This document shows positions 2,445 through 20,186 of a stretch of DNA of 33,290 nucleotides, piece after piece; within the stretch, counting starts at the first letter, position 1; each line of letters opens with the position of its first letter. A program made the position numbers and the translations under genes. The DNA comes from Candidatus Methylomirabilota bacterium (lineage in GTDB: Bacteria; Methylomirabilota; Methylomirabilia; Rokubacteriales; CSP1-6). The stretch lies in contig JAICGY010000002.1 in the NCBI GenBank assembly GCA_025922915.1, positions 1-33,290 of the forward strand, read 5' to 3'. The notes beneath the pieces were generated by a model. That model worked only from the letters and a program-made list of their open reading frames with translations, had not been told where the DNA came from and made no database searches.

Positions 2445-2473
2445 TTGACAGGCGGGATCTCCTGTAACGTTAG
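2445..2473 (+). promoter_or_regulatory. Putative sigma70 -35 (TTGACA) with adjacent palindromic operator-like site upstream of the ABC operon
   Basis: Perfect TTGACA at 2445-2450 in an AT-richer patch and palindrome TAACGTTA at 2465-2472. There is no well-spaced consensus -10. Confidence 0.35.
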
Positions 2474-4388: not shown

Positions 4389-4400
4389 CCCACCCACACA

Positions 4401-4445
4401 CGCCGGGGGGTGCCACCGCGCAGGCGGCGGTGGCCCCTCCCGGCG
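4401..4445 (+). other. Intercistronic stem-loop after the binding-protein gene (mRNA stabiliser or partial terminator)
   Basis: 19-nt arms CGCCGGGGGGTGCCACCGC (4401-4419) and GCGGTGGCCCCTCCCGGCG (4427-4445) with a 7-nt loop, one G-U pair and one mismatch. No U-tract follows. Confidence 0.6.
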
Positions 4446-4456
4446 CGGAGTGACGG

Positions 4457-5434
4457 ATGCGAACCTACATCCTCCGACGGCTGCTCCAGATCGTGCCGAC
4501 CGTGCTGATGATCACCCTGGTGGTGTTCGTCATGATGCAGTCCATCCCCGGCGACCCGGTGGTCGCCCTCCTGGGCGACGCCTACACCGAGGAAGACGCG
4601 ATCAAGATGCGCGAGCAGTACGGCCTGGACCGGTCGGTCGCGGTCCAGTACCTGATCTGGCTCGGCCGGCTCGTGCAGGGCGACTGGGGCACGTCGGTCC
4701 TCAGCGGGCAGCCCGTCCTCAAGGAAGTGCTGATCCGCCTGCCGGTCACGATCGAGCTGATCATCCTCGCCATGGTGGTGGCGCTGATGATCGCCATCCC
4801 GGCCGCGATCATCGGCGCCCTGCGCCAGAACCGGTGGCAGGACTACACCGCCACCTCGGCCGCCCTGGTCGGCATCTCGATTCCGGAGTTCTTCCTGGGG
4901 GTCCTGCTCCTGCTCCTGTTCTCGTTCGGCCTGAAGGGCCTGCTCCCGAGCTCGGGCTGGGTCTACCTCCCGGGGACCTGTCCCACCATCATCTGCAACT
5001 CGGGCGTGTGGGGGAATCTCCAGCACGTGCTGATGCCGGCAATCGCCCTGGGGGTGGCGCGGGCGGCCCTGCTCACCCGGCTCCTCCGCGCCAGCATGCT
5101 CGAGGTGATCCGGACCGAGTACGTCACGAGCGCCCGGGCCAAGGGCCTCGGTGAGTGGAAAGTGGTGTTCAAGCACGGGCTGAAGAACGCGCTCATCCCG
5201 ACGGTGACCGTGATGGGGCTGCAGATCAGCTTCCTGATCGGCGGGGCCATCGTGATCGAGACCCTGTTCGCCCTGCCCGGGCTCGGGACCTTCGGCATCG
5301 ATGCGATCATCGCCCGCGACTACCCCCAGGTCCAGGGGTTCGCGCTGCTCACGGCGTGCGCCTTCGTCGTCATGAACCTCGTCGTCGACCTCACGTACTC
5401 GCTCCTGGATCCGCGGATCCGATACGGAGGGTGA
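4457..5434 (+). CDS. ABC transporter permease, DppB/OppB-like (325 aa)
   Basis: YILRRLL N-terminus, PGDP, YGLDRS..QY, EAA loop YVTSARAKGLGE, HGLKNALIP, RDYPQVQG, LDPRIR. Confidence 0.95.
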   Translation: MRTYILRRLLQIVPTVLMITLVVFVMMQSIPGDPVVALLGDAYTEEDAIKMREQYGLDRSVAVQYLIWLGRLVQGDWGTSVLSGQPVLKEVLIRLPVTIELIILAMVVALMIAIPAAIIGALRQNRWQDYTATSAALVGISIPEFFLGVLLLLLFSFGLKGLLPSSGWVYLPGTCPTIICNSGVWGNLQHVLMPAIALGVARAALLTRLLRASMLEVIRTEYVTSARAKGLGEWKVVFKHGLKNALIPTVTVMGLQISFLIGGAIVIETLFALPGLGTFGIDAIIARDYPQVQGFALLTACAFVVMNLVVDLTYSLLDPRIRYGG

Positions 5435-6411
5435 GCGTGGCCCATCACCGCGACGCGAACGACCCGAAGCCCCGGTCCCTCGGCGCCGCCGCGCTGCGCG
5501 AGGCCGACTTTCCCATACCCACGGGGGTGCTGCCGGCCGACGCCCGGAGTCGGCGCACGGAATCGCCGACCATGCAGGCGCTGCGCCGGCTCCGCCGGAG
5601 CACGACCGCCCTCATCGGGCTCGGCATCGTGGTGGCGCTGCTGCTGGTGGCCGCCCTCGCCGACGTGCTGGCCCCGCAGAGCCCGATCGTCAGTGACCAG
5701 ACCCAGACGTTCCGGCTCCCGAGCGCCGAGCACCCGATGGGGACGGACCAGCTCGGCCGCGACATGCTGAGCCGCGTGATCCACGGCTCGCGGGTCTCCC
5801 TGGCCGTCGGCGTGTCCTCCGTGCTGCTCGCCCTCTTCGTCGGCGTCCCCATGGGCATGATCGCCGGGTTCTACGGCGGGCGGGTGGACACGATCGTGAT
5901 GCGGGTGATGGATCTGATCCTCGCGTTTCCCGTCTACCTGCTGGCCATCATCATCATGGTGATCTTCACGCCGACGGCGGGCTGGCTCGGCACCATCAAG
6001 GTGATCGGCGCCATCGCCATCGTGCGCATTCCGATCTACGCGCGCCTGGTCCGGGGCAGCGTGCTCTCGATCAAGGAGAAGGAGTACATCGAGGCGTGCC
6101 GGGCCCTCGGGCAGCGCGGTCCCTCCATCCTCCTGCGCCACGTCCTGCCGAACAGCCTGGCTCCCGTCATCGTGGCCACGACCCTGGGGATCGGCACCGC
6201 CATCATCGTGGAGGCGACCCTGTCCTTCCTCGGCCTCGGGACCCAGCCCCCGACGCCGAGCTGGGGATGGGATCTCAAGGCCAACGTGGCCTTCATCCAG
6301 GCCAACGCCTGGCTGACGATCTTCCCCGGGCTGGCGATCTTCGTCACCGTGCTCGGGTTCAACCTGTTCGGGGACGGGTTGCGGGACGCCCTCGACCCGC
6401 GGCTCAAGTAA
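5431..6411 (+). CDS. ABC transporter permease, DppC/OppC-like (about 326 aa)
   Basis: In track ORF 5155..6411, with a GTG start at 5431 overlapping the upstream TGA (GTGA). Motifs HPMGTDQLGRDMLSRVIHG, EYIEACRALG, RHVLPN, GDGLRDALDPR. Confidence 0.93.
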   Translation: MSVAHHRDANDPKPRSLGAAALREADFPIPTGVLPADARSRRTESPTMQALRRLRRSTTALIGLGIVVALLLVAALADVLAPQSPIVSDQTQTFRLPSAEHPMGTDQLGRDMLSRVIHGSRVSLAVGVSSVLLALFVGVPMGMIAGFYGGRVDTIVMRVMDLILAFPVYLLAIIIMVIFTPTAGWLGTIKVIGAIAIVRIPIYARLVRGSVLSIKEKEYIEACRALGQRGPSILLRHVLPNSLAPVIVATTLGIGTAIIVEATLSFLGLGTQPPTPSWGWDLKANVAFIQANAWLTIFPGLAIFVTVLGFNLFGDGLRDALDPRLK

Positions 6412-7441
6412 CCGGCCGGCGCTGCCGGGTCTCCGACCCGGGCGCCGGCGCGCCGCGAACGGAGAGTCGCCACAGCGCCAGCCAGGCGCCGAGTCCCATC
6501 GCCGTGAAGGTGACGAGGCTTCCGACGGCGAGGGTGGCCGCGTTGGTGAGGCCCTGGCTGATGTTGCAGCCGTCCCCGAGCAGCGCCGCGCCGCCCATGA
6601 GCAGGCCGCCGGCGAAGAGCTTCACGAGGCTCCATCCCGGAGGGAGCTTCCAGCGGAACTCCCCCGCGAGCCAGGCGCCGCCCCCAGCACCGGTCACCAC
6701 CCCGACGAGCAGGAGCATGCTCCAGGTGATCCGGTTCGGGAACCCCACCATGACGTACGTGAGCCAGTGGCCCGTGTTGGCGCTGAAGGTGATGCCGACC
6801 GGCGAGTCGGCGAGGCTCGAGGCCCACCAGCCCGCCGCGATCAGGAGGCCGACGGCGACACCGGTCAGCGGCCACGGCCACCTGCCGGGCGCGGGCGCGG
6901 CCCGCGCCCGGAGAAGCCAGAGGCCACCCGCCAGCACCAGCGCTGCGACCGCGATCCACGGGGGCACGCCGATGACGCTCGCGAGCGTGGGGGACGCCCC
7001 GTCCACGGAGAGCGTCGGCGCCTGGAGTGTCCGGCGCAGCGGCGCGAGCGCGCCGATCCCCACGACGCTGGCGCCGACGGCGAAGCCGAACAGGACCACG
7101 AGGGCGCCGATGGCGCCCTCACCGACGCGGTACCACGTGCTGGCCGCGCATCCACCCGCGAGGACCATGCCGACTCCGAAGAGCAGCCCGCCCAGTCCGT
7201 TGGCCAGCCAGCGAAACGGGCGGACAGGAAGCTCCACCACGCCCAGGCCCGACAGCAGGTGGACGCCGACGACGGCCACCAGCAGCGCCAGGATCCAGGC
7301 CCGGAGCAGCGTGGCGTCCCCCGCCAGCACGAGGTTCGCCAGCGCCCGGGTCAGACAGAACCCGCCGCGCTGGATGACGTAGCCGAAGAGCGCGCCCAGC
7401 GCCAGCGCGGAGGGGACCATGGCCCAGGGGGGCTCGTCCAT
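6404..7441 (-). CDS. yeeE: YeeE/YedE (TsuA-like) sulfur-compound/thiosulfate transporter (345 aa)
   Basis: Multi-TM protein with the three family Cys motifs QRGGFC, GMVLAGGC..S and LGDGCNISQG, plus GEFRW. Confidence 0.9.
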   Translation of the reverse strand: MDEPPWAMVPSALALGALFGYVIQRGGFCLTRALANLVLAGDATLLRAWILALLVAVVGVHLLSGLGVVELPVRPFRWLANGLGGLLFGVGMVLAGGCAASTWYRVGEGAIGALVVLFGFAVGASVVGIGALAPLRRTLQAPTLSVDGASPTLASVIGVPPWIAVAALVLAGGLWLLRARAAPAPGRWPWPLTGVAVGLLIAAGWWASSLADSPVGITFSANTGHWLTYVMVGFPNRITWSMLLLVGVVTGAGGGAWLAGEFRWKLPPGWSLVKLFAGGLLMGGAALLGDGCNISQGLTNAATLAVGSLVTFTAMGLGAWLALWRLSVRGAPAPGSETRQRRPVT

Positions 7442-7459
7442 GCGTGCCTCGATCGGCGA

Positions 7460-8347
7460 TCAGGTGCGCCGCCAGCCCACGACGGGCTCCGATGGCTCGA
7501 CCGGCTCCTGGCGGTCGAGCACCCGGAAGACGAGGACGAGCACGGCCAGCATGTCGATGGCGCCGCCGGCGCTCCACATGATGACCCCACCCCACCACTG
7601 GTCCTCCAGAGCGCTCACCCCGGCTCCGGCGGCCAGCGCGGCGTACGTCGGATACAGCACCCATGGACTCATGGTCAGCAGCAGGCCCAGCACGGCCTCC
7701 TGGAAGGCCCCCAGGAGGAGATACGCCATCTGCGCGCCGGGATGGGCGGCCGGACGGAGCCGCGGTGCCGCCCCCAGCAGCGGCCACCAGAAGAGCACGC
7801 CGGCGCCGAAGAGGACCACGTGCTCGAGATCGTGCACGAGCCGATCGCCGAGCGCCGCTTCCCAGGCCACGGGGGCGTGCCAGAGCCAGAGCGCCAGCGC
7901 GGAGAGCAGCCAGGCCACCGGCATGGCGGTGAGCGCCCGCCACAGCCCCCGCAGGGAGCCGCCCGGACGGAGCGGTGCGCCGCCCCAGAGTCGCGCCGGC
8001 CGCGGAAGCCCCCACAGGACGACCGGCAACGGGTTGGCGAGGAGGAGGGCCGGGGCCGCCAGCTTCAGCAGGAGGAGATGCTGGACCTTGTGGGCCGAGA
8101 AGCGCGCGTGCGCCCACTGATCCAGCGGAGAGAGGAGCGCGCCGGCGATCGACGCCACGCCCGCCACCGCGGCGGCGAGACGCCAGGGCGGCGCCAGCGC
8201 CGGCCGCCGCGTCCGCAGGCGCCACCAGCCGAGCGCGTAGAGGCCGAGGGCGACGGCCAGGGGAGCGGCGACCTCGGGCCGCCATCCGCCGGTCAGGGCG
8301 GTGGTCGACTCGGCGAGCGTCGGAAGCGAGCCGGCCGGGTGCGCCAT
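7460..8347 (-). CDS. ctaG: Cytochrome c oxidase assembly factor, Caa3_CtaG family (295 aa)
   Basis: ATG at 8347 within track ORF 7460..8395. Motifs ALLSPLD, FSAH(K)VQHLLL, WLWHAP, HDLEH, LFWWPLL, DQxxGGVIMW. Confidence 0.88.
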   Translation of the reverse strand: MAHPAGSLPTLAESTTALTGGWRPEVAAPLAVALGLYALGWWRLRTRRPALAPPWRLAAAVAGVASIAGALLSPLDQWAHARFSAHKVQHLLLLKLAAPALLLANPLPVVLWGLPRPARLWGGAPLRPGGSLRGLWRALTAMPVAWLLSALALWLWHAPVAWEAALGDRLVHDLEHVVLFGAGVLFWWPLLGAAPRLRPAAHPGAQMAYLLLGAFQEAVLGLLLTMSPWVLYPTYAALAAGAGVSALEDQWWGGVIMWSAGGAIDMLAVLVLVFRVLDRQEPVEPSEPVVGWRRT

Positions 8348-8360
8348 GCCGCAGCGCGCC

Positions 8361-8453
8361 TCACTTGCGCCAGGTGAGCACCACGACCCAGGCAAAGAAA
8401 ACCAGCGTGCCCACGAGGAAGATCCCGAACGCCAGCATCTCGATCCCCGGCAT
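8361..8453 (-). CDS. Small single-TM membrane protein (30 aa, MPGIEMLAFGIFLVGTLVFFAWVVVLTWRK), possible oxidase accessory subunit
   Basis: ATG at 8453 preceded by GAAGGGAG RBS. One hydrophobic helix ends in RK. It fills the gap within the operon. Confidence 0.6.
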   Translation of the reverse strand: MPGIEMLAFGIFLVGTLVFFAWVVVLTWRK

Positions 8454-8464
8454 CGCGGCTCCCT

Positions 8465-8569
8465 TCACGGGCCCTGCACGACGACCGCCACGACGTTGAA
8501 CAGGGCGTCGCTCGCGAGGATGAGGAGATTCAGCACCGCCAGCCCGAGGAGCAGCCAGACCGCCCTCAT
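8465..8569 (-). CDS. Small hydrophobic protein (34 aa, MRAVWLLLGLAVLNLLILASDALFNVVAVVVQGP)
   Basis: Not in the ORF track; translated by hand. The ATG overlaps the upstream TGA (ATGA, 8566-8569), the stop is TGA at 8465-8467, and codons are GC3-rich. Confidence 0.55.
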   Translation of the reverse strand: MRAVWLLLGLAVLNLLILASDALFNVVAVVVQGP

Positions 8570-8781
8570 CGCGCCAGCCCCGGCCCCAGTCCGCCCCAGA
8601 ACTTGACCAGGTAGTAGACGCCCCAGATGGTGAGCACGGCGTACACGAGCAGCAGCCAGCGGTTGACGAACCCGTGATAGCTACGGATCTCGCCCTGGGC
8701 AAACTCCTCGATGTGGCCACGCTCGCGCTCGTGCTCGGCGATCACCCGGTCCCGGTCGGGTCTATCCTCGGCTGTCGTCAT
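8566..8781 (-). CDS. Small membrane protein resembling the CcoP/FixP N-terminal domain (71 aa)
   Basis: GEIRSYHGFVNRWLLLVYAVLTIWGVYYLV resembles the FixP_N pattern DGIxExDNPxPRWWxxxFxxTIxWxxxY. It sits downstream of ccoNO. Confidence 0.65.
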   Translation of the reverse strand: MTTAEDRPDRDRVIAEHERERGHIEEFAQGEIRSYHGFVNRWLLLVYAVLTIWGVYYLVKFWGGLGPGLAR

Positions 8782-8938
8782 GCTCGATGCCCTCGCTCCG
8801 CAGTACCTGGTACCTCGCCCCCTCGACGTGGCGGAGCGCCCCTGAGGCCACCCCCCACAGGAACAGGCACAGGGCGGCCAGGCCCATCAGGAGGGAGACG
8901 AGGAATTCTCCGATCACGAGATAGATCAGCTCCTGCAT
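8762..8938 (-). CDS. ccoS: CcoS/FixS-like cbb3 oxidase maturation protein (58 aa)
   Basis: Not in the ORF track. Hand translation: MQELIYLVIGEFLVSLLMGLAALCLFLWGVASGALRHVEGARYQVLRSEGIEHDDSRG. It matches the CcoS pattern SLxxxxxxxxxFLWxVxSG....EGxxxxxL, although GQFDD is replaced by GALRH. It starts 3 nt after the ccoO stop. Confidence 0.75.
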   Translation of the reverse strand: MQELIYLVIGEFLVSLLMGLAALCLFLWGVASGALRHVEGARYQVLRSEGIEHDDSRG

Positions 8939-8941
8939 CGG

Positions 8942-10582
8942 CTACCTGCCCTCCCCCACGATCCCCTTGTGGAAACGCACCAGCGCCTTGGCGTCCGTCC
9001 GGTCCGGCGCCGCGGGGTCCAGGGCCAGCCGGGAGCTGCGATGGGCTTCCTGGTCGGGCCGGTTGAGTCGCTCGAGGACGTCGGGGGCCAGCTTCAGCCG
9101 CTCGCCGGTCAGGGGGTCGTTGAACGCGGAGAAGGACAGCACGAAGTAGCTGATGGCCCAGCGATCCTCCTCGCCCAGCGCATCGGCGAAGGAAGGCATC
9201 GGCGTCCCGTCCAGCCCGGTGGTCATGGTCCGGAAGATGTCGCGCACGTCGGCCCCGCCCTTGAACTGGCCCTTCGTGAAGTCGGCGGGCAGGATCGGGA
9301 AGCCCAGGTCGTCCTCGAGCTGGTCCGCCGACGGGCCGTCACCCTTTCCGGTATCGCCGTGGCACTGGAAGCACTTGGCCTTGACGTACCACTCCTTGCC
9401 CCGGGCCAGCAGCTCCGGCGTGGCCGGCGGGGGCTGACCGATGAGGACGGGCGTCTCCGGCTTCTCCTCCTTCCAGCGCTCGGAGAAGGTCTTGATGAAG
9501 GTCAGCACGGCCAGGCGGTCCTTCTCGTGAAGCTCGTGCCAGGTGGGCATGGCCGTGAACCGGACTCCCGTATTGACCGTCCGGAAGAGGTCGCCGTCGG
9601 TGGGCAGCGATCCCGACGGCGTCGTCCGGAACTTGAAGGCGCCCACGACGAAGTTGCGGGGCCGGGGGTTGAGGAAGGTCGCCACGGGTCCGTTGCCGTC
9701 GCCCTTGACGCCGTGACAGCCCACGCACCGACGCTCGTAGACCTCCCGCCCGCGCGCCTCCAGCTCCTCGGTGCGCGGGATCGACATCACGCTGGCCGAG
9801 AGGTTCTGGGGCTCGAAGACGTCCCGCCAGGCCCCCCGGTTCATCCCGAGCTTCTGGATGTAGGCCACGAGCCCGCGGAGCTCCTCGGTGGGCACGACGA
9901 CCGTCAGGATCTTGCCCTTCCAGGTCTCCAGCGCGTTGTAGGGCTCGGGGAGATTCTCGACGTCCAGCACCGGCGTGCCGTCCGTCTGCTCGGCGAAGGC
10001 GAGCCCCTCGGGATTCGGATGGAGCCGGATCGCCCGGTCGGCCCGGCCGCTGAACAGGGCCGCCAGCGCGGGCGAGTCGCCCAGCGCGGCCTGCCCCTCC
10101 TTCTCGACGACCGGCACGCGGGCGGTCCGGAACAGCCAGGGGAAGCGCGGCATGATCGAGTCGGGCACCACCATGGTCGGATCCCAGTGGTGGGCGTAGT
10201 GCCACTGGTCGGAGTACTTGAGGCCCACGCGCGTGAGGTCGGGGCCGATGCGCCGGGTGGACAGCAGATGGGGCCGGTCGTGCGCGTACTCCCCGACCTG
10301 GGAGACCGGCCCCCAGCGGAATTCCTCGCCGGTGACCGGACGCACGAACTGGCTGTGACAGTACCAGCACCCTTCGCGCTGGTAGACGTCGCGGCCCAGC
10401 TGCTCCAGCGGCGTGTACGGCGTGGCGTCGTACCAGACCCACTTGACCTGCCCGAGCTCGTTGCGCACGGCGCGGGTGGCGCGCGTCTCCCGCGACTCGG
10501 GAATGGCGATCGGCAGGATGCCCTGGACGAAGATGGCCAGCGAGATGAAGAAGAACCCGGCGCCCAGAGCGTAGGTCCTCAC
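8942..10582 (-). CDS. ccoO: cbb3-type cytochrome c oxidase subunit II (CcoO) fused to two additional cytochrome c domains (triheme, 546 aa)
   Basis: N-terminal TM, then the CcoO motifs GRDVYQREGCWYCHSQFVRP, RIGPDLTRVG, WHYAHHWDP and DSIMPRFPWL. These are followed by CVGCHG..GDG..AMP and CFQCHG..GDG..PMP. Confidence 0.92.
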   Translation of the reverse strand: MRTYALGAGFFFISLAIFVQGILPIAIPESRETRATRAVRNELGQVKWVWYDATPYTPLEQLGRDVYQREGCWYCHSQFVRPVTGEEFRWGPVSQVGEYAHDRPHLLSTRRIGPDLTRVGLKYSDQWHYAHHWDPTMVVPDSIMPRFPWLFRTARVPVVEKEGQAALGDSPALAALFSGRADRAIRLHPNPEGLAFAEQTDGTPVLDVENLPEPYNALETWKGKILTVVVPTEELRGLVAYIQKLGMNRGAWRDVFEPQNLSASVMSIPRTEELEARGREVYERRCVGCHGVKGDGNGPVATFLNPRPRNFVVGAFKFRTTPSGSLPTDGDLFRTVNTGVRFTAMPTWHELHEKDRLAVLTFIKTFSERWKEEKPETPVLIGQPPPATPELLARGKEWYVKAKCFQCHGDTGKGDGPSADQLEDDLGFPILPADFTKGQFKGGADVRDIFRTMTTGLDGTPMPSFADALGEEDRWAISYFVLSFSAFNDPLTGERLKLAPDVLERLNRPDQEAHRSSRLALDPAAPDRTDAKALVRFHKGIVGEGR

Positions 10583-10585
10583 CCG

Positions 10586-12001
10586 TCACACTCGGGCCAG
10601 CCGCTCGAGCGGCTGATGGCGGGCCGGCAGGCTCGGCAGGGGCGTGCCGGCCAGGGCGGTCCGCATGAAGTTGTAGACCAGGAGCGACATGCCGACGTCC
10701 ATCGAGATGCCGGCGAAGGTCCGGATGAGCCAGAAGGGCTTCAGGGTGACCATCGTGTCGACCCACTCGGCGCCCCCGATCAGCATGTAGCCCTGTTGCA
10801 GCCCTTGTGAGGAGAGGACCAGCCCCATCGTGGAGATGCCGAGCGTGATGAGCCAGAAGCTCCAGTTCCCGAGCCGGAAGCTCCAGAGGTCGCGGCCCCA
10901 CAACCGCGGCCACACGTAGATGGCCCCGGCCATCGCCCAGACCACGAAGGTCCCGAACACGGTCAGGTGCGAGTGCGAGATCACGAAGTCCGTGAAATGG
11001 GTGGGGCGCTGGATCCACCGAAGGGCTTCCGTCGAGCCCTGGAAGCAGCCGACGAGGTACATGATGGCCCCCATCATCAGGAACTTGGCCGGGAGGTTGC
11101 GAGAGAAGCCCTGCCAGTGCCCGATCATGGTCCCGAAGAAGTTCTGGAGCACGGTCCACACCGGGATGATGAGCATCATCGAGGCGACGATGGCGATGGT
11201 CTCGGCCCAGTCGGCGATCGGGCTGAAGAGGTAGTGGTGGATCCCCACGAACGGGTAGAAGAACGCCAGCGACCAGAAGCCGATCAGCGAGAGCTTGTGG
11301 CTGTAGATCGGAGCCCGCACCGACGCCGGCAGGAAGTAGTAGATCAGCACGTAGCCCGCGGGGGTGATCCAGAGGCCGACCACGTAGTGGATGAACAGCC
11401 CGTGCAGCGCCGCGTTGTTGATCCCGGCCGCGGTCCAGTAGGGCCCGACCACGAGGAGCACGAGGTTGATGCTGGTCCAGACCAGCGCCCCGATGAGGTA
11501 CCAGAGACTCACGTAGAGCTGGCGCTGCACGCGGCGGCCGATGGTCATGAGGTGCTGCAGGGTCAGCAGCCAGACCAGTGCCACCACCACGACCAGGTTG
11601 GGCAGGGGGATCTCCCCCGCCTCCCAGCCGCGGTTGGCGCCCAGCACCGAGAAGGCCAGGAAGGTGGCGGCCAGGTTGAGGTTCCAGATCCAGAGCAGCG
11701 GATAACCCCAGCGCTCCTTCCACATCGGCACCCCGGCCAGACGCGGGGTCACGTAGTAGATGAGCCCGATGAACAGCGTGGAGAAGGCCCCCCAGATGAC
11801 GCCGTTGACGTGCACGGGCCGGAGCCGGCCGAAGGTGAGCCACGACTGCTCGCCGAGGAAGGCGGGGTAGTTGAACTTCGTGGAGACGATCACCCCGATG
11901 GTCGGTGCGAACATCAGCCAGAAGAAGCCCCAGAGGAGCCATCCCCGGATCAGCCGGGGATCGATGAGCTCGTCGTTCCGGGTTCTCGCAACCTCGTTCA
12001 T
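10586..12001 (-). CDS. ccoN: cbb3-type heme-copper oxidase subunit I, divergent (471 aa)
   Basis: ATG at 12001 (MNEVAR) with GGAG RBS. Motifs FGRLRPVHVNG, LYVSLWY, FIHYVVG, YYFLP, YPFVGIHH, HFTDFVISHSH show all six His ligands and the helix-VII Tyr. Confidence 0.93.
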   Translation of the reverse strand: MNEVARTRNDELIDPRLIRGWLLWGFFWLMFAPTIGVIVSTKFNYPAFLGEQSWLTFGRLRPVHVNGVIWGAFSTLFIGLIYYVTPRLAGVPMWKERWGYPLLWIWNLNLAATFLAFSVLGANRGWEAGEIPLPNLVVVVALVWLLTLQHLMTIGRRVQRQLYVSLWYLIGALVWTSINLVLLVVGPYWTAAGINNAALHGLFIHYVVGLWITPAGYVLIYYFLPASVRAPIYSHKLSLIGFWSLAFFYPFVGIHHYLFSPIADWAETIAIVASMMLIIPVWTVLQNFFGTMIGHWQGFSRNLPAKFLMMGAIMYLVGCFQGSTEALRWIQRPTHFTDFVISHSHLTVFGTFVVWAMAGAIYVWPRLWGRDLWSFRLGNWSFWLITLGISTMGLVLSSQGLQQGYMLIGGAEWVDTMVTLKPFWLIRTFAGISMDVGMSLLVYNFMRTALAGTPLPSLPARHQPLERLARV

Positions 12002-12027
12002 CGGTGTGTCTCCGTCCGCAGCCCGGA

Positions 12028-12945
12028 TCAGGCCAGGGGCAGGTCCCGGCTGGCCTCGAACCGCTCGCCACGACTGCTGGTGACCACCACGCGGAGGGGC
12101 CCGCGGTGCCGGGCGCGCACCCGGAAGCCGATGAAGGGGTTGTCGCTGAGCGCCGAGGTCAGCTCGAACCGGCTCAGCGGCTCCGCGCCGTAGCGCACCT
12201 CGATCGTCTGCACGTAGAGGGGCTCGGACTCCTGGACGAACCGGCCCTCGCGAAGGGCCAGGCCCGTGCGGCTGGGATGCCGCATGAGGATCTGGACCAG
12301 CACGAGGGCGTCCCGGCGGACGAGGCCGCGCTTGAGCAGCTCGGGCACCCGGATGACCGGGGCACCGACCTCCTGGGGGGCCACCCGCGTCGGGGCCGGG
12401 CTGGCGCAGCCGCCCACGCCGTCCGGGATGGTGATGGGACGGCTCGCCGACCACCGGCCGTCCCGTGTGCACTCCGCCGTCGCCGTCACCACCGAGCGCC
12501 CCGTGTGCATGCGGCACTGGAACGAGAGGTAGACCTGCCCGTTGGCCGGCGAGAGGTGAAACACTCCCTTGGAGGGAACGGGATCGCTCTCGTTCGTGAC
12601 GTGAATGGTCGTGATGTGATGCGAGGGCTCCATCGGGTGATCCATCCTGATCACGACGGGGACCTTGGCGCCGTCGCCGGCCACGATAGGCACCTCGAGC
12701 CGGGGCCGGTGCAGCCGCTCGAGCGGAGAGGCGGCGTCCCGGTCGTCCAGCGCCCCGGAGTGGCGGCGCGGCGCCGCCGCCCCGGCCGGGCGGGGCGTCT
12801 CGCCGAGGAGCCAGATCGCCCCGGCGGCGAGGCCCAGGAAGCGGCGTCGCGAGCCGAGCCCATCCGGGCGAGACCGGGCCAGGTCGGGCGGCATTCGCGT
12901 GCCCCCGCCCGCCGCCGTCCCGGGCTCGCCCCACCATCGGGTCAT
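12028..12945 (-). CDS. Fused SoxY-SoxZ-like sulfur carrier protein with Tat signal (alternative start 12894)
   Basis: Tat motif SRRRFLG. The SoxY-like domain (VPIVAGDGAKVPV, DPVP..F.LSP) ends in GVGGCAS. The SoxZ-like domain has ILMRHPSRTG, ALSDNPFIGFR and SSRGERFE. Confidence 0.85.
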   Translation of the reverse strand: MTRWWGEPGTAAGGGTRMPPDLARSRPDGLGSRRRFLGLAAGAIWLLGETPRPAGAAAPRRHSGALDDRDAASPLERLHRPRLEVPIVAGDGAKVPVVIRMDHPMEPSHHITTIHVTNESDPVPSKGVFHLSPANGQVYLSFQCRMHTGRSVVTATAECTRDGRWSASRPITIPDGVGGCASPAPTRVAPQEVGAPVIRVPELLKRGLVRRDALVLVQILMRHPSRTGLALREGRFVQESEPLYVQTIEVRYGAEPLSRFELTSALSDNPFIGFRVRARHRGPLRVVVTSSRGERFEASRDLPLA

Positions 12946-12972
12946 CGTCGGGTCACGTCCGCGCCGATCGGC

Positions 12973-13440
12973 TCAGTGCCGGCCGGTGTCGAGCTTGGAG
13001 CCGCGGTTGGCCCAGTAGATGTAGGCTTCCAGGGCCTTCATCGCCGGCCCGTCCGGATCGATCTTGACGCCCTCGTTGGGCTTCTCGATGCACCAGTTGA
13101 TCATGTCCCGCAGCGTGGCGAACGCGTTCATCTGCTCCTGGAACTTCGGGAACTCGTGCGGATGACTGTCGGAGGCGAAGGGATGGCACATGGCGCACGC
13201 CATCCCGGTGTTGGACAGCTTGATGTTCATCTGCTTCTCGGTGTCGGCGTCCCCGTGAAACAGGAGATCGCCGAGCCGGACCTGCTCCATCAGGACCTGC
13301 TGGAACGCGTCGAGCTGCTCCTGCGAGTGCTTCGCCTTGTGGGCGAGGGCCGGCGCCGGGCCCCAGAGCGAGCTGGCACCAGCCCCCAGCAGTCCGAGCA
13401 GCCCCGCTCCCAGCGCGGCCAGCGCGAGTTTCCCCTTCAT
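12973..13440 (-). CDS. Periplasmic monoheme cytochrome c, TsdA/SoxA-like domain with candidate axial Cys (155 aa)
   Basis: Sec signal and a single CAMCH, followed by FPKF...TLRDMINWC...N.G.......AMKALEAYI. This is the pattern of TsdA heme-1 and SoxA domains (YPxY..TLxxRIxxC..MxALxAY). Confidence 0.8.
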   Translation of the reverse strand: MKGKLALAALGAGLLGLLGAGASSLWGPAPALAHKAKHSQEQLDAFQQVLMEQVRLGDLLFHGDADTEKQMNIKLSNTGMACAMCHPFASDSHPHEFPKFQEQMNAFATLRDMINWCIEKPNEGVKIDPDGPAMKALEAYIYWANRGSKLDTGRH

Positions 13441-13459
13441 GGCTCTTCCCCCGGCTCTC

Positions 13460-14602
13460 CTAGTAGGGCCACATGCGATCGGCGATCCTGGGATGCAGGA
13501 TCTGGTTGACGTTGTCCGCCGTGCCGGAATCCACCACGGACTCGGCGAAGACCTCCTTGCGGCCCCACATCACGTACTCGTTCTCGATCCGGCCGGCCGC
13601 GCCGGCCGTGAGCTTCGAGTAGCCCACGCCGTCGAAGTGGTCCCCGGGGTCGGCCCGGATCATGGGCTTGGTCAGCGGGGGCACGCCCTGCGGCGCATAG
13701 GGCCACGGCCAGGACGTGGCCAGCATCCCGATGGAGCGCATCGAGCCGAGCTCGTTGTACAGCACCTGATGCGTGTGGCCGTGGATGTTGGTGACGTTGC
13801 TGAAGGGCTTGAGGATCTCGTTGACCTCCCGCCAGTCGCGCGTCCAGAAGTTCCATGGGGGGTAGTACTCGTAGAGGGGCGTGTGGGTGAAGACCACGAG
13901 CGGCCGGTCCTTGGCCCAGCCCGACACCGTCTGCTGGAGCCACTGGCGCTGCTCGTCGCCGACGCCGGCCCAGGGCCCGGCCACGCTGCCGTCCAGCGTG
14001 GCCATGTGGCCCATCCGCTCCTTCGGCGACATCTTCTTGGCGGACCAGTAGTCGGGGGCGAACCCCACGGTGTTGAGGCCGATGAAGCGCACGCCGTTGT
14101 GGTCGAACGTCCAGGGGGTCTTGCCGAACATCCGTTCCCACTTGGCGCCCATGTCCAGGTACCAGTCGTGCTCACCGGGGATGAAGTGCTTCTTGATGGT
14201 GAGCTCCTTGAGGATGTCCGCTCCCAGGTCTATCTCCACGGGATCCCCGAGCTGCGCCAGGTCCCCGCCGAAGATGAGGAAGTCCGCGGGCGGGCTCATG
14301 GCCTTGATCTCCTTCACGGCCCGCACCGTCTTGTCCACGAACCGGGTGTTGACGTCCTTGGGGTACAGATGGGTGTCCGAGAGCCAGGCGAACTTGAAGG
14401 CGGCCTGCTGGCCGAAGGCCAGGTCGAGCGTGTTGATGACGGGGAACCATCCGACCGAGGCCACGCCGGCCGCGGTGCCGGCCAGGATGGCCTTGTTGAT
14501 GAACAGCCTTCGAGTGATCGCCAGGGATCCATCCGGGCGCCCGCCCGTGTCGATCTCCATGGCGACCTGCCGCGGGTCGAGGTCGACCTCCCGTGGCTCC
14601 AT
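13460..14602 (-). CDS. Tat-exported calcineurin-like metallophosphoesterase (380 aa)
   Basis: ATG at 14602 after AAAGGAG and Tat motif ITRRLFI. The five metal motifs are SDTH, GGDLAQ, PGEHD, FTHTP and HGHTHQ. Confidence 0.9.
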   Translation of the reverse strand: MEPREVDLDPRQVAMEIDTGGRPDGSLAITRRLFINKAILAGTAAGVASVGWFPVINTLDLAFGQQAAFKFAWLSDTHLYPKDVNTRFVDKTVRAVKEIKAMSPPADFLIFGGDLAQLGDPVEIDLGADILKELTIKKHFIPGEHDWYLDMGAKWERMFGKTPWTFDHNGVRFIGLNTVGFAPDYWSAKKMSPKERMGHMATLDGSVAGPWAGVGDEQRQWLQQTVSGWAKDRPLVVFTHTPLYEYYPPWNFWTRDWREVNEILKPFSNVTNIHGHTHQVLYNELGSMRSIGMLATSWPWPYAPQGVPPLTKPMIRADPGDHFDGVGYSKLTAGAAGRIENEYVMWGRKEVFAESVVDSGTADNVNQILHPRIADRMWPY

Positions 14603-14619
14603 GGCCGCTCCTTTCTCGG

Positions 14620-15339
14620 CTACTTCTTCTTGGCCAGATCGATGGTGACGGTAGCGGTCTCCTTGGCCTTGACGGTGACGGGCGTCTCCACCTCCTCGGT
14701 GTGCTCCTGCCAGGCCACCAGCGTGTACGCTCCCGGCGGCACGTCCTTGATGGTGAACGAGCCATCCTTCCCGGTGACGGCATAGTAGGGGTTGTCGGCC
14801 ACGTAGACCCAGGCCAGCATCCAGCCGTGGGCGTCGCACTCGACGCGCATGATGCCGGTCTTCTTGATCGGCTTCTTGATGGTCTGGCCCTGGATGGGCA
14901 GGGCGACGTTGAAGGCCGTCAGCTTGCCGAAGAAGCCGTGAGTGTTGTGGAGCACGGGATCCGAGTTGTGGATGGCCACGTCGCCCATCCGGATCACCTG
15001 GACGTGGGGCAGGAACCGGCAGTCCTTGTTGTCGATCACCGGGGGCTGGGCCGGTTTCTCCCAGGCCTTCCCCCTCTCCACGCCCTTGAGATACACGAAG
15101 CTGCCTTCCACCGCCTTGTCCGGGCCCAGCAGGATGCGCGCCTGCTCGCGAATGCCACCGCACACCTCCTTGTCCTTGGTGGGGATGATCTTCCGGGGCG
15201 ACGGGACCGCTCCGGTGAACGTCACCGTGCCCTTGATGGTCCCCCCATCGGTGACCGAGATCGCCTGATAGCTCGCGGCCGGCCCGCTCGACAGCAGCAG
15301 GCCGGTCAGCAGGGTGACGGGTCCGATGAGCCGACGCAT
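14620..15339 (-). CDS. Secreted protein with cupredoxin-like His..CxxHxxM motif and carboxypeptidase-regulatory-like (Ig) domain (239 aa)
   Basis: ATG at 15339 after AAAAGGAG and a Sec signal. Motifs GTIKGTV, NSDPVLHNTH, VECDAHGWM, YAVTGKDGSFTIKDVPPGAYTLVAW. Confidence 0.82.
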   Translation of the reverse strand: MRRLIGPVTLLTGLLLSSGPAASYQAISVTDGGTIKGTVTFTGAVPSPRKIIPTKDKEVCGGIREQARILLGPDKAVEGSFVYLKGVERGKAWEKPAQPPVIDNKDCRFLPHVQVIRMGDVAIHNSDPVLHNTHGFFGKLTAFNVALPIQGQTIKKPIKKTGIMRVECDAHGWMLAWVYVADNPYYAVTGKDGSFTIKDVPPGAYTLVAWQEHTEEVETPVTVKAKETATVTIDLAKKK

Positions 15340-15382
15340 GAAGCGGTCTCCTTTTCGACCCGGCCGCCGGCGGCCGGGCACG

Positions 15383-16213
15383 TCAGAGCTGGTCGTGAGC
15401 GCGCGAGCCGGGCGGCAGATCGATGCGGTCCTCGCGCGAATGGCAGACGAGGCACGAGCGGCCGCCGATCTCGGACACCAGCGAGTAGGCGATGCCGTGG
15501 GAGGCCCAGACGATGACGTCGTAGCCCTGGTGCGTGACCATCTTGAACTTCGGAGCGGCGTCGATGCCGAGGTCCCGGTATTTCTCGAACGGGATGACGA
15601 AGAGGGAGATGTCCCGTCCATCCATCTTGAAATGGAGAGCGGCGACCTCCAGGTCGCCCAGGTTGGCGATTCGCCCGCCGACCAGGTTGAGGTCGTCCCG
15701 CGTGAGCGTGGGCAGGTTGACGTTGAAGTTGAGCCGGGCCTTGAACCATTCCTCGGCGGCCCGGGGCGTGACCTCGCTGATGTCGAGGGGGAGGGTGCCG
15801 AGGGCCAGCTTGCGGTGCTGCTCGACGGAGGCGGCGGCCAGGTGCACGAGCGGCGATCGGTCCAGCCGCCAGAGCTGCACGCCGTCGGACGTCAGCCCGG
15901 TCTGGACCCCGAACCCGGCCAGGAGGCCGGCGACGAACAGCGCGCCGCCGGCCACGAGGTGCCGTCCCCACCGCCAGGCCGGCGCCACCGGCACGGTGTC
16001 GAGCATCTGGAGGACCCGAGCCCGCAGCCGCTCGGGCACCGGGTCCGGCCGGAGGGGGGCGATGTACTCGTCGGCGAAGCTCCGCTCCAGGTCCACCAGC
16101 CTCTGGCAGCCCCAGCAGCCGGCGAAGTGGTCCTCCAGGAGCGCGCGCTCCTCGTCCGGAAGCTCGCCGTCCAGATACTCGAAGAGACGGGCGCGCGCCT
16201 GCTTACAGAGCAT
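15383..16213 (-). CDS. Transmembrane anti-sigma factor (zf-HC2/ZAS) with C-terminal CXXCH (276 aa)
   Basis: N-terminal C..YLDGEL..HFAGCWGC (HxxxCxxC), one TM helix and an extracytoplasmic domain ending SCLVCH. It overlaps the sigma gene. Confidence 0.9.
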   Translation of the reverse strand: MLCKQARARLFEYLDGELPDEERALLEDHFAGCWGCQRLVDLERSFADEYIAPLRPDPVPERLRARVLQMLDTVPVAPAWRWGRHLVAGGALFVAGLLAGFGVQTGLTSDGVQLWRLDRSPLVHLAAASVEQHRKLALGTLPLDISEVTPRAAEEWFKARLNFNVNLPTLTRDDLNLVGGRIANLGDLEVAALHFKMDGRDISLFVIPFEKYRDLGIDAAPKFKMVTHQGYDVIVWASHGIAYSLVSEIGGRSCLVCHSREDRIDLPPGSRAHDQL

Positions 16214-16775
16214 GGCCGTTCCGGGCGCGCGCCGAGATCGCCGGGGCCGCCTCCTGGAGCGCGAGCCGGACGAGATTGCGGCCCCGGAAGAGGCGTGACA
16301 TGACCGTGCCCACCGGTGCGCCGACGACGGTCGCGATCTGCTGGTACGACAGTCCCTCGATCTCGCGCAGCTCGACGACCTCCCGGAGGACGACGGGCAG
16401 GCGCCGGATGGCGTCCCGCACCTCCTGCAGGGCCGCCCGCCGCAGCAGGATCTCCTCCGGGTTCAGCGGGACCGGGTAGAGCAGCACGTCCCGGACCGCA
16501 TCCGCAGCGACCCCCTCCTGGGAATCACGGTCCTCGAGCGGGCGCGCCCGGCGGCGGCGCATACGGTCGATCTCGGCGTTCTTCATGATCGTCAGCATCC
16601 AGACCTTGAAGCTCAGCTGAGGCTTGTAGGAGGAGAAGGCTTGCAGGGCCTTGAGGAGCGATTCCTGAAGGAGATCCTCGGCTTCCGCGTCGTTCCGGCT
16701 CAGCAGCCGGGCGTACCCGTAGAGCGTGGGCAGATGGCTCAGAGCGAGGTCCTGGAACGCCGATTCGTGCTCCAT
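16203..16775 (-). CDS. ECF RNA polymerase sigma-70 factor (190 aa)
   Basis: Region 2 EAEDLLQE..KA...FKVWMLTIMKN and region 4 LREVVELREIEGLSYQQIA...PVGTVMSRLFRGR. Confidence 0.95.
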   Translation of the reverse strand: MEHESAFQDLALSHLPTLYGYARLLSRNDAEAEDLLQESLLKALQAFSSYKPQLSFKVWMLTIMKNAEIDRMRRRRARPLEDRDSQEGVAADAVRDVLLYPVPLNPEEILLRRAALQEVRDAIRRLPVVLREVVELREIEGLSYQQIATVVGAPVGTVMSRLFRGRNLVRLALQEAAPAISARARNGHAL

Positions 16776-16806
16776 CAGGTGCCCCGGTGCAAGGCCTCCG
16801 TATGAG

Positions 16807-16836
16807 AGTAGTACGTATCGGCGGGCAGCTTATTCC
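16807..16836 (-). promoter_or_regulatory. Putative ECF-dependent (autoregulatory) promoter GGAAT-N16-CGTACT
   Basis: The minus strand reads GGAAT AAGCTGCCCGCCGATA CGTACTACT, about 30-60 nt upstream of the sigma ATG. It fits the general ECF GGAA(C/T)-N16/17-(C)GT layout and is AT-rich relative to its surroundings. Confidence 0.5.
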
Positions 16837-16866
16837 AGCGGCCCGAGGCTGCGTGGCGGCGGCGAC

Positions 16867-17553
16867 TCAGCGGGGCGCGCGCCCTCCCCCGGGCTGGAGG
16901 GAGGCGAGCGTCGCCAGGAGCACCGGGAGGGGCAGGGCGGCCAGGGACGGGAGGTGGAGGTCGGCGGCCGTGAAATCGAGCGCCGCGGTGACCCCGTTGG
17001 GCACGGCGACGCAGGGAAGGCCGGCGGCCTTGGCAGCGCGGATGCCGTTCGGGGAGTCCTCGAAGGCCACGGCCTCCGTCGCCGCCACGCCGGCGGCGTC
17101 GAGGGCGGCCCGGTACAGGGCGGGGTCGGGCTTCACGCGGGCGACGTCGTCGGAGGTGCGGACGACGTCGAAGTGGGCGAGCAGGCCCAGCCGCTCGAGG
17201 TGGCCGCAGACCCAGGCGCGATCCGACGACGAGGCAACGGCCAGCCCGAGGCCCAGGCGCCGGGCCGTGTCCACGTAGTCCCGGACGCCGGGAAGCGCCT
17301 CCTGCCGGGCGATCAGCTCGGCCACCCTCGCCGCGCGGCGGGCCCGCACGGCGGCGGCGTCGATGGGCCGCTCCAGCAGCGTCTCGAGGTGACGACACGG
17401 ATCGAACGTGTCGTCGGTGCCGATGTTCGCGGCCCACAGGCCGGGGTCGAGCGTGCAGCCGTGCTCCGCGTAGATCTCGCACCAGGCCTCGAAGGCGGGC
17501 GCCTCCGTGTCGAGGATCAGGCCGTCGAAGTCGAAGACGAGGAGCCGCGTCAC
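16867..17553 (-). CDS. HAD-IA family hydrolase (CbbY/beta-PGM-like, 228 aa)
   Basis: GTG at 17553 overlaps the upstream stop. Motifs FDFDGLILDTE, VASSS, KPDP, FEDSPNG..AA.AAG. Confidence 0.92.
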   Translation of the reverse strand: MTRLLVFDFDGLILDTEAPAFEAWCEIYAEHGCTLDPGLWAANIGTDDTFDPCRHLETLLERPIDAAAVRARRAARVAELIARQEALPGVRDYVDTARRLGLGLAVASSSDRAWVCGHLERLGLLAHFDVVRTSDDVARVKPDPALYRAALDAAGVAATEAVAFEDSPNGIRAAKAAGLPCVAVPNGVTAALDFTAADLHLPSLAALPLPVLLATLASLQPGGGRAPR

Positions 17554-18668: not shown

Positions 18669-18669
18669 C

Positions 18670-20160: not shown

Positions 20161-20186
20161 GGGTGACGTCTCCTTGGTCCCCGCGC

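Follow-up and report, generated by a model that had tools for sequence, protein, structure and literature searches.

Characterised SoxA and TsdA enzymes act on thiosulfate, forming S–S bonds at a Cys-ligated haem, and the PF00149 domain is the catalytic fold of SoxB. Another periplasmic electron path, built from a cupredoxin and cytochromes and serving iron as its substrate, is encoded in one operon with its terminal oxidase in the rus operon of Acidithiobacillus ferrooxidans. The present analysis concerns a run of 14 genes on the minus strand, from position 16775 to 6404 of a 33,290-nucleotide stretch (the window, meaning that entire stretch) of contig JAICGY010000002.1, from a metagenome-assembled genome (MAG) of a Candidatus Methylomirabilota bacterium. 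A preliminary description of this DNA, made from the sequence, had proposed a minimal Sox-like module under the control of an extracytoplasmic function (ECF) sigma factor and coupled to a dedicated oxidase. We present here an uncharacterised gene set that recurs in several bacterial phyla, the fixed core of which is a trio of cupredoxin, metallophosphoesterase (MPE) and monohaem cytochrome, and which by analogy may be a carrier-type periplasmic sulfur or redox system. No published description of the gene set was found in the literature.

By analogy, the cluster would work most like a stripped-down Sox system, and it also resembles the sets of fused SoxYZ, metallohydrolase and rhodanese that are linked to pyrroloquinoline quinone (PQQ) dehydrogenases. 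With canonical Sox it shares a SoxA-family haem domain of the His/Cys type, SoxY and SoxZ domains in which GG is followed by Cys, a two-metal hydrolase of calcineurin fold located in the periplasm, export by both the Tat and Sec routes, and electrons expected to arrive at a cytochrome c oxidase. The differences are equally marked. One haem domain is present here as against the SoxA–SoxX pair, and no second small cytochrome that could be a SoxX partner was found in the cluster, where the model matched only a 30.5-bit stretch inside CcoO (cut-off 61). The carrier is a single fused chain with an internal GGC and a putative metal site of the superoxide reductase (SOR) type, whereas the canonical carrier has a C-terminal GGCGG; the hydrolase is devoid of the 5'-nucleotidase C-terminal domain, carries a GEHD motif and has only the PF00149 fold in common with SoxB; a cupredoxin is always present, and the carrier is dispensable in part of the family. 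No SoxCD-type molybdoenzyme appears among the Pfam results of the cluster, the genome itself not having been searched with a SoxCD model. The Sox equivalog models all stay below their cut-offs (SoxA TIGR04484 29.6 bits against 110, TIGR04488 43.6 against 125 and TIGR04490 41.6 against 76).

The cytochrome also aligns with the catalytic His/Cys haem domain of TsdA, its Cys in register; TsdA has two haem domains, whereas one is found here, always in the company of a hydrolase. The second, electron-exit haem of TsdA would, on this analogy, have to be replaced by the cupredoxin. The PQQ-dehydrogenase-linked SoxYZ-like sets (TIGR04557) similarly combine a fused carrier with a periplasmic metallohydrolase, with a rhodanese in some lineages, and adjoin a periplasmic redox enzyme and a small electron carrier. 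Their hydrolase is of the metallo-beta-lactamase fold (SoxH type), in contrast to the calcineurin fold here, and the place of the PQQ dehydrogenase is taken in our cluster by a SoxA-like cytochrome, a cupredoxin and a terminal oxidase; the fused carrier of the window scores 99.8 bits with TIGR04557 (cut-off 140). With the rus operon the likeness lies in the logic of the operon, whereas the substrate there is iron, the proteins are others and neither hydrolase nor carrier is included.

Two scans with different seeds were used to survey the gene set. When the fused SoxYZ protein served as seed and each species was represented by a single genome, 34 loci were obtained, belonging to Rokubacteria/Methylomirabilota, Myxococcota (Anaeromyxobacteraceae and others) and Tectomicrobia/Entotheonella. 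The MPE was present at 60% identity or more in 28 of the 34, with the cupredoxin upstream in all 25 loci that had room for it and the cytochrome downstream in 28 of 28. Among the remaining six, three lie at contig ends (L004, L028, L030), one has a divergent MPE of 49% identity (L024), and two are without the trio within 10 kb (L032, L035). The second scan, of metagenomes, was seeded with the MPE and hence unbiased towards SoxYZ; among the best 80 of its 493 relatives, the MPE was preceded by the cupredoxin in 65 of 65 loci and followed by the cytochrome in 69 of 69. Cupredoxin, MPE and monohaem cytochrome thus form an invariant trio, which is the fixed core of the module. The expectation that the gene set would be conserved elsewhere is borne out by both scans for the trio, and fails for two of the other parts, SoxYZ and YeeE.

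It can be seen from 58 of the MPE-seeded loci that the gene after the cytochrome is variable, being the SoxYZ fusion in 37, ccoN in 17, ccoPN in one and another gene in three. The form without SoxYZ prevails where MPE identity to the window drops to 65–70%, and no SoxYZ-like gene was found in five genomes that carry a divergent MPE–cytochrome pair. SoxYZ is an accessory, not a fixed part of the module, and the core role that the preliminary description gave it has to be given up, as the cytochrome is followed directly by ccoN in those 17 loci.

The coupling to an oxidase is similarly frequent and similarly flexible. A haem-copper oxidase was present in 24 of the 26 fusion-seeded loci with enough flank (C-family 19, A-family five, none two) and in 33 of the 42 such MPE-seeded loci (C-family 26, A-family seven). 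The partner is of the C-family in Rokubacteria and Tectomicrobia and of the A-family (aa3-type) in Myxococcota, where COX1/2/3 are accompanied by a dihaem cytochrome and SCO1. In five Myxococcota genome loci the next gene after the fusion encodes a secreted rhodanese; among the 80 MPE-seeded loci, a rhodanese occurs in 12 and a cytochrome c peroxidase (CCP) in five. Within the phylum, 251 genomes were surveyed, 104 of good quality (tallies include the genomes flagged unpublished, G221, G222 and G081, none of which carries a conclusion by itself). The MPE is found in 38 of the 251, 27 of these being among the good-quality genomes, and the fusion at orthologue level (E 1e-85 or better) in 32, all except one of which also have the MPE (31/32). 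MPE, SoxYZ and CcoN are adjacent on one contig in 20 genomes (one of them, G221, flagged unpublished). The CcoN clade of the window is far more widespread, with 79 of the 251 genomes; since the MPE occurs in only 25 of these 79, the oxidase is best taken as the ordinary cbb3-type enzyme of the lineage and the module as an add-on in part of it. The oxidase is accordingly not dedicated to the module, as had been supposed, and in Myxococcota the partner is even of the aa3 type. An oxidase of either family beside the trio fits an electron-donor module that plugs into whichever oxidase is available.

The first protein of the trio (14620–15339; 239 amino acids, aa) is a secreted, amicyanin-like type-1 cupredoxin with a C-terminal CarboxypepD_reg beta-sandwich (E 2.9e-9). 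No Pfam cupredoxin model matched it. Its AF2 model (pLDDT 89) has amicyanin, plastocyanin and pseudoazurin as top Foldseek matches (E about 1e-5, target TM about 0.7), and the loop C174-x2-H177-x2-M180 together with H137 and H140 is invariant in 20 sequences. The copper ligands of amicyanin include C92, H95 and M98. Judged by modelled fold and predicted copper ligands, the protein is a genuine amicyanin-type cupredoxin, which bears out its first description as cupredoxin-like. A paralogue of the cupredoxin/CarboxypepD_reg protein, of 35–38% identity, occurs in loci L046 (15890–19334) and L048 (11892–17663), where it adjoins a multihaem cytochrome of about 880–900 aa and a Rieske/cytochrome b complex; these bacteria may use proteins of this family quite generally to shuttle electrons in the periplasm.

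The MPE (13460–14602; 380 aa; PF00149 E 1.8e-12) is exported by Tat and is the most conserved protein of the set, being 70–83% identical across three phyla. It retains every metal-binding motif of its superfamily, and D67, H69, D105, E135-H136-D137, H231, H265, H267, H269 and the twin Arg are invariant; the reading GEHD, where GNHD is usual, is equally without exception. A search of the ESM Atlas returned generic metallophosphoesterase clusters only. Two Cys of most orthologues (LTKC and DSGCADN, at alignment columns near residues 303 and 352) are replaced by Pro and Thr in the clade of the window; the sequences suggest that a disulfide was lost in this branch.

The third protein (12973–13440; 155 aa) is a monohaem c-type cytochrome of the SoxA/TsdA type, with one CxxCH (CAMCH) and one stretch of PF21342 (E 9.7e-9; 35.6 bits, cut-off 27). 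A profile of 20 orthologues matches SoxA (2c1d, E 1.4e-7; 1h31, E 6.5e-7) and TsdA (4wq7, E 1.7e-4), and the invariant Cys117 of the motif INWCIE aligns with the Cys that is haem ligand and active-site residue in all three structures. The haem is predicted to be His/Cys-ligated as in SoxA and TsdA, which upholds the earlier assignment; relatives are annotated "thiosulfate dehydrogenase" by JGI. In the host MAG this cytochrome is the only SoxA-like gene and the fusion the only SoxY-like one. Signal-peptide cleavage is predicted within residues 31–38 at ALA|HK, leaving His as the first residue of the mature protein, and H34, K35, H38 and the C-terminal H155 (GRH) are invariant in 20 SoxYZ-linked orthologues; SoxYZ-less relatives have AHKDP or ANKDP, and GK[FY], instead. 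These residues may make up a metal site at the N-terminal His, or a surface for contacts that goes together with SoxYZ.

The fourth periplasmic protein, where present, is of a hybrid nature. The Tat-exported fusion (12028–12894; 288 aa) combines a SoxY/SOR-like domain, a GGC linker and a SoxZ domain, with PF13501 (E 6.2e-18), PF08770 (E 1.5e-14) and PF01880 of the desulfoferrodoxin family (E 4.7e-9) above cut-off. A profile of 25 members matches SoxZ (1.9e-8), SOR 2amu (9.8e-6) and SoxY (1.9e-4) in the PDB, and the AF2 model (pLDDT 81) resembles SoxZ and SOR structures in Foldseek. The GGC at the end of the first domain is internal, followed by a Pro-rich linker and the fused SoxZ domain, and is kept in 120 of 120 family members, in line with the carrier Cys that had been proposed. 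So is Cys159, at a ligand position. The iron-ligand positions of SOR and the neighbouring Glu (E/H/H/H/C/H) are in register with the solved SORs 2amu and 4brj, a set that Thermus SoxY does not have; four His and the Cys are kept in 99 of 118 gap-free fusion sequences and EHHHCH in 88 of 118. The copy in the window reads EHHHCD, with Asp at the fourth His, and is one of nine such among 120 members. The earlier identification as a SoxYZ fusion consequently stands for the SoxY and SoxZ domains and is incomplete for the "SoxY" half, which, going by the family alignment, also has an apparently complete SOR-type ligand set.

With neelaredoxin, desulfoferrodoxin centre II and the Tat-SOR class, the fusion shares an Ig-like fold, the Tat signal, and E-x-x-H, HPM-x3-H and C-x2-H in register; it differs in being joined to SoxZ through the invariant GGC linker, in an extra residue in the Glu-His motif and in the Asp for the fourth His. 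The account of the Tat-SOR class, in its accessible portion, makes no mention of a SoxZ fusion (PMC3116461). Public annotation names the parts separately, as "SoxY", "desulfoferrodoxin", "thiosulfate dehydrogenase" and "cAMP phosphodiesterase". A complex prediction of MPE residues 40–371 with fusion residues 66–305 scored 0.00 (mark 0.32), which speaks neither for nor against binding. A second, paralogous family of fused SoxYZ occurs away from the MPE in many genomes of the phylum (E about 1e-55 to 1e-69), and other genomes of the phylum have split soxY–soxZ gene pairs, which appear as matches with one internal stop.

The module is headed by its own switch. The ECF sigma factor (16203–16775; 190 aa; Sigma70_r2 E 8.1e-16, Sigma70_r4_2 E 3.5e-16) is followed by a membrane anti-sigma factor (15383–16213; zf-HC2 E 4.5e-10), and the pair shows sigma regions 2 and 4, the anti-sigma H-x3-C-x2-C and a promoter of the autoregulated type. 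The promoter motif GGAATA-N15-CGTA (16812–16836, minus strand) lies 37 nucleotides (nt) upstream of the sigma gene. Nothing else in the window matches it (chance expectation 0.01), and 14 related loci likewise have a single copy immediately ahead of their sigma gene. No sigma-70-like promoter was found within the cluster, and the gaps between the 14 genes are −20 to +78 nt (26 nt from soxYZ to ccoN). The single conserved ECF promoter and the tight gaps point to one controlled transcript, and ECF regulation, as first proposed, is supported for this lineage. Sigma orthologues head the module in 17 of 28 genome loci.

On its cytoplasmic side the anti-sigma factor has the ZAS motif H-x3-C-x2-C, and its periplasmic domain closes with CxxCH (CLVCH); H29, C33, C36, C254, C257 and H258 are invariant in 13 of 13 aligned sequences, and its best NCBIfam match is an RsrA-type anti-sigma, below cut-off. 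By these motifs the protein probably carries a covalently bound haem as sensor, and through this periplasmic domain it would respond to the substrate or to redox state by inducing the operon. The pair lies upstream of the module in Rokubacteria, divergently in L026 and L074 and downstream in L031 and L090, and is missing from oxidase-bearing loci without the module, such as L032 and L035. It travels with the periplasmic module, not with the oxidase.

With reference to these observations, we tentatively favour, at somewhat less than an even chance, the reading of the module as Sox-like periplasmic sulfur oxidation that feeds the oxidase. A mobile periplasmic redox module would have been placed before the lineage's ordinary cbb3-type oxidase genes in one ECF-sigma-controlled operon. 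Thiosulfate, or a sulfane or persulfide species, would be oxidatively coupled at the His/Cys haem to a protein Cys, being the GGC arm of the fusion where present and otherwise the haem Cys itself. The two-metal hydrolase would then free the terminal sulfone as sulfate, as SoxB does, and two electrons would pass through the cupredoxin to the c-haems of CcoO–P and on to O2 at CcoN. The leftover sulfane sulfur would go to the YeeE importer in the window, along the lines of the SoxT/YeeE import model, and to the periplasmic rhodanese in Myxococcota.

This reading is ranked first because it is the sole one that gives a role to every invariant of the trio, and because it explains the module in genomes without SoxB. 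Three Sox-related families are kept side by side (PF21342, PF13501 with PF08770, and PF00149), which supports it. Further support comes from the Cys117 of the cytochrome in register with SoxA and TsdA, the invariant GGC Cys and SoxZ domain of the carrier, the ever-present hydrolase with the SoxB fold, the link to an oxidase, the amicyanin-like electron carrier and the single promoter, and the rhodanese and YeeE neighbours, by analogy, would support sulfur handling. No match to SoxB (TIGR04486) was found in the host MAG and none above cut-off in five other carrier genomes (6/6), so that the absence of soxB, noted at first for the window, extends further; judged from these searches there appears to be no canonical Sox enzyme for the module to serve, which we count in favour. 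In a Sulfurimonas strain, SoxH, a metallohydrolase distinct from SoxB, reportedly frees sulfate from SoxY, according to the accessible part of the source (PMC11237559).

A good deal weighs against it. Every mechanistic step rests on analogy. As SoxYZ is missing in 17 of 58 loci and in the genomes with the divergent pair, the carrier arm is not essential to the core enzyme, and this is the main weakness; where SoxYZ is missing, the intermediate would have to sit on the Cys of the cytochrome itself. No extra Cys or GGC arm has been gained by the cytochrome in SoxYZ-less loci; an N-terminal extension with a conserved Cys is seen only in divergent type-2 cytochromes. The nearest solved structure to the MPE is the phosphodiesterase GpdQ, at only E 2.4e-4. 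The SoxX-like second haem is missing, and all Sox and TsdA family models fall below their curated cut-offs. YeeE (6404–7441; PF04143 E 4.4e-66, 224 bits), the last gene of the operon and a member of the YeeE/TsuA family of sulfur-compound transporters, is below the cut-offs of the TsuA models (NF052577 164.9 against 400, NF041049 142 against 645), and it accompanies the module in a single genome locus out of 28 and a single metagenome locus out of 80, so its place as a part of the module cannot be maintained; the order of genes in that one metagenome locus (L072) equals that of the window exactly. The apparently full SOR-type ligand set in the SoxY-like half, including the Glu, the dihaem CCPs that flank the related genes in L046, L047 and L048, with a desulfoferrodoxin and a ferritin-like gene in one of them, the Fur-family regulators by SoxYZ and the redox-sensing ZAS-type anti-sigma all point elsewhere.

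These last observations lead to the strongest competitor, a respiratory branch for defence against O2 and reactive oxygen species (ROS), to which we assign a small but real chance. The ECF/ZAS pair would sense oxidative or periplasmic redox stress and induce a high-affinity oxidase together with the SOR-like iron centre; the cupredoxin and cytochrome would be electron donors, CCPs would remove H2O2 in other lineages, and the MPE and the His/Cys haem would be ROS-related. The SOR ligands aligned with solved SORs (four His and Cys in 99 of 118, PF01880 above cut-off), the invariant ZAS motif with the RsrA type as best NCBIfam match and the constant association with O2- or H2O2-reducing enzymes are all in its favour, and a Tat-exported SOR class is catalogued in SORGOdb, going by the accessible part of its description (PMC3116461). 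Its best support comes from the peroxidase-linked loci. In one family of the class to which the host MAG belongs, the module has other surroundings; L046 (from genome G058) reads CCP, cupredoxin, MPE, cytochrome, SoxYZ and CCP, with no oxidase nearby. The divergent MPE–cytochrome pair (49% and 43–50% identity; GEHD, CxxCH and INWC kept) is directly preceded by a dihaem CCP gene in both loci examined, of which L047 reads Usp, ferritin-like, classical desulfoferrodoxin, CCP, MPE and cytochrome, and L048 CCP, MPE, cytochrome and Rieske/cytochrome b complex. Among the metagenome loci, 5 of 80 have a CCP. Fur-family regulators adjoin the fusion gene in two lineages (L024, which is the same as L049, and L034). 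In the former locus (166–5339), a lower-GC relative, a Fur-family regulator, a TPR protein, a Cox11-domain protein and a YncE-like beta-propeller stand between SoxYZ and the trio, and a YncE-like beta-propeller also precedes the cupredoxin in the Tectomicrobia locus L026 (6426–7397).

Such a defence function would leave the GGC Cys, the SoxZ domain, the SoxA/TsdA-type haem, the ever-present MPE and the rhodanese and YeeE neighbours unexplained. The fusion of the window has Asp at the fourth His position, no CCP_MauG gene was found in the host MAG (89% complete), and SoxYZ, the sole SOR-like part, is absent from 17 of 58 loci that keep trio and oxidase. The sulfur and oxygen-stress themes may be reconcilable, if the module donates electrons and its sink is the periplasm-facing reductase of oxygen species that the host possesses, be it a C-family oxidase, an A-family oxidase or a peroxidase. 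A bolder form, which we consider unlikely, is that the trio is an unrecognised minimal sulfur-oxidising system of the periplasm, common among soil bacteria, independent of SoxB and SoxAX and using the host's oxidase or peroxidase, and that the branch seen here recruited a SoxY-type carrier with an SOR-type iron centre. That centre could oxidise carrier-bound sulfane, the task of SoxCD, or could link the oxidation of sulfur with the scavenging of oxygen radicals.

A different substrate for the same machinery seems distinctly unlikely to us. The module would then be a relay of organic thiols and disulfides, as proposed for the fused SoxYZ/SoxH/rhodanese sets beside PQQ dehydrogenases, or would handle selenium or metal species. 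In support, YeeE/YedE relatives include selenium transporters, and fused SoxYZ with rhodanese and metallohydrolase is described in contexts other than sulfur oxidation, as far as the accessible parts of two papers go (PMC12997753, PMC11237559). The fusion nevertheless stays below the TIGR04557 cut-off of 140 and no PQQ dehydrogenase was found among the genes of the window. The thiosulfate activity of SoxA and TsdA also speaks against another substrate, with the alignment giving these proteins the status of closest solved relatives and nothing further.

An accessory or biogenesis set for the oxidase, in which the cupredoxin is a donor and the MPE, cytochrome and SoxYZ-like protein handle copper, iron or haem or protect thiols with no separate substrate, appears improbable. 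The oxidase genes themselves have to be described here. CcoN (10586–12001; PF00115 E 1.8e-65) is the catalytic subunit of a divergent C-family haem-copper oxidase; aligned to chain n of 6xkw, it keeps all six His ligands and the cross-link Tyr of YxxxxxHH in helix VII, and is for this reason taken as an O2 reductase. An enzyme of the nitric oxide reductase type was considered and rejected on the same retained residues. At 194.1 bits with TIGR00780 (cut-off 583.15) its sequence places it in a divergent clade, in agreement with the first assessment. It is followed by a trihaem CcoO fused to a dihaem CcoP-like domain (8942–10582; FixO E 9.2e-48 and two cytochrome c domains), with CWYCH, CVGCH and CFQCH and with Cytochrom_C and Cytochrome_CBB3 matching in two stretches each.

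Compared with a cbb3 oxidase (ccoNOQP and ccoGHIS), the CcoN ligands and Tyr, the CcoO haem domain, the dihaem CcoP-type domain, CcoS and small membrane subunits are shared, whereas the CcoP dihaem domain is fused to CcoO, its anchor is a separate 71-aa protein, and two extra conserved microproteins and a Caa3_CtaG-type factor are added. Of these, the CcoS-like maturation protein (8762–8938; 58 aa; TIGR00847 E 6.6e-7) scores 28.9 bits against a cut-off of 28.35. The small membrane protein resembling the CcoP N-terminal anchor (8566–8781; weak FixP_N, E 0.0095, below cut-off) is conserved after ccoS in related loci. By tblastn, a hydrophobic microprotein of 34 aa (8465–8569) keeps its place after ccoPN in more than 30 loci (E < 0.01), and a single-helix microprotein of 30 aa (8361–8453) does so in more than 35 (E < 0.001). 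The Caa3_CtaG-family membrane assembly factor (7460–8347; PF09678 E 4.6e-53) was located behind the oxidase genes in 10 of 28 loci from genomes and 9 of 80 from metagenomes, many loci being truncated before they reach it. Some Rokubacteria loci have a second ccoN–ccoOP–ccoS–ccoPN copy of 61–68% identity (L005, 2242–5535; L012, 11674–12747), placed immediately ahead of the sigma gene or behind ctaG, so that tandem cbb3 operons frame the module.

A role in biogenesis draws support from the adjacency of the module to oxidase genes of two families, from copper-handling neighbours (CtaG here, SCO1 in Myxococcota, a Cox11-domain protein in L024 and L007), from a P-type ATPase and a DsbD-like gene after the oxidase in Tectomicrobia, and from the cupredoxin paralogue by the Rieske/cytochrome b complex in L046 and L048. 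It is opposed by the 54 of 79 phylum genomes that have the same CcoN clade and no module, by the module standing without a nearby oxidase in 9 of 42 loci (L046 and L031 are examples) and by the module's own sigma/anti-sigma switch; and we know of no assembly role for a SoxA/TsdA-type His/Cys haem or for a dimetal hydrolase.

That the genes are chance neighbours and the MPE an ordinary periplasmic phosphoesterase for phosphate scavenging is very improbable: its relatives are labelled cAMP phosphodiesterase, CpdA or Icc in the source databases and GpdQ is the nearest solved structure, but the gene order shows no exception (cupredoxin 65 of 65 loci, cytochrome 69 of 69) across at least three phyla, the protein keeps 70–83% identity between phyla and the invariant, unusual GEHD, and its gene shares promoter and tight spacing with its neighbours.

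If the favoured sulfur reading is true, a compact route from reduced sulfur to oxygen would exist in many uncultured bacteria of soil, of groundwater and in association with sponges, including Rokubacteria/Methylomirabilota, Myxococcota and Tectomicrobia. Surveys with soxB, soxAX or dsr as markers would be blind to this route, and estimates of soil sulfur oxidisers would need revision. If instead the oxygen-stress explanation is true, the fusion would represent a superoxide reductase of the periplasm that is linked to a carrier and coupled to respiration. In either case the always-linked trio, the SoxY/SOR hybrid domain and the anti-sigma factor with its predicted periplasmic haem are targets for biochemistry, and the hybrid domain bears on the relation between the SoxY and superoxide reductase folds. 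What goes beyond the preliminary description is the invariant trio, the hybrid domain, the merely accessory standing of SoxYZ and YeeE, the pairing of the module with oxidases of both families or with peroxidases, the conservation of the ECF promoter and the predicted haem of the anti-sigma factor.

The limits of the operon were drawn with attention to base composition. The G+C content of the window is about 72%, because of which raw lists of open reading frames (ORFs) are full of false frames; gene frames were set by a frame plot of third-position G+C (GC3) along with Pfam and NCBIfam domain searches, and start and stop codons were checked. The 14 co-oriented genes first listed were all recovered in an unbroken run, with the named domains present in each. 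An ORF at 16775–17482, which overlaps the promoter, was considered as a fifteenth gene and rejected, being in the wrong GC3 frame and having no Pfam match and no relative in the 34 loci. The true upstream neighbour is a HAD hydrolase (16867–17547), with a mandelate-racemase-type enzyme also upstream, and on the downstream side the operon meets the gene of an Opp-type ABC permease, which is convergent and ends at 6411; the flanking genes are unrelated to the operon. The remainder of the window (17550–33288) holds a mandelate racemase-type enzyme, a UbiD-family decarboxylase, a TRAP-type DctM transporter, a molybdopterin subunit of the xanthine-dehydrogenase family, amidohydrolases, a luciferase-like monooxygenase, an AMP-binding ligase and a zinc-type dehydrogenase, and looks like a region for catabolism of aromatics or heterocycles, apparently unrelated to the operon.

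The host MAG comprises 3.97 Mb in 509 contigs and is 89.3% complete, and the nearest named relatives of the fusion are in MAGs of Candidatus Rokuibacteriota and Methylomirabilota. Near-identical DNA was traced in public sequencing runs, with at least half of the sampled words in 17 runs and some in 20 runs from 11 studies; all runs with matching DNA are labelled soil metagenome, and one (X1) covers 30 of 30 bins. None of the listed runs is on record as RNA. Three of them (X18, X19 and X20) are labelled metatranscriptomic but flagged "probably DNA"; the contigs of the first two are only 151–493 nt long, over soxYZ, cpd, mpe, ccoOP and ctaG/yeeE, and the third has two, of 151 and 260 nt. The host MAG further contains at least eight loci with matches to the COX1 family of haem-copper oxidases above cut-off, a set of terminal oxidase or NO-reductase type that is unusually rich for a 4-Mb genome.

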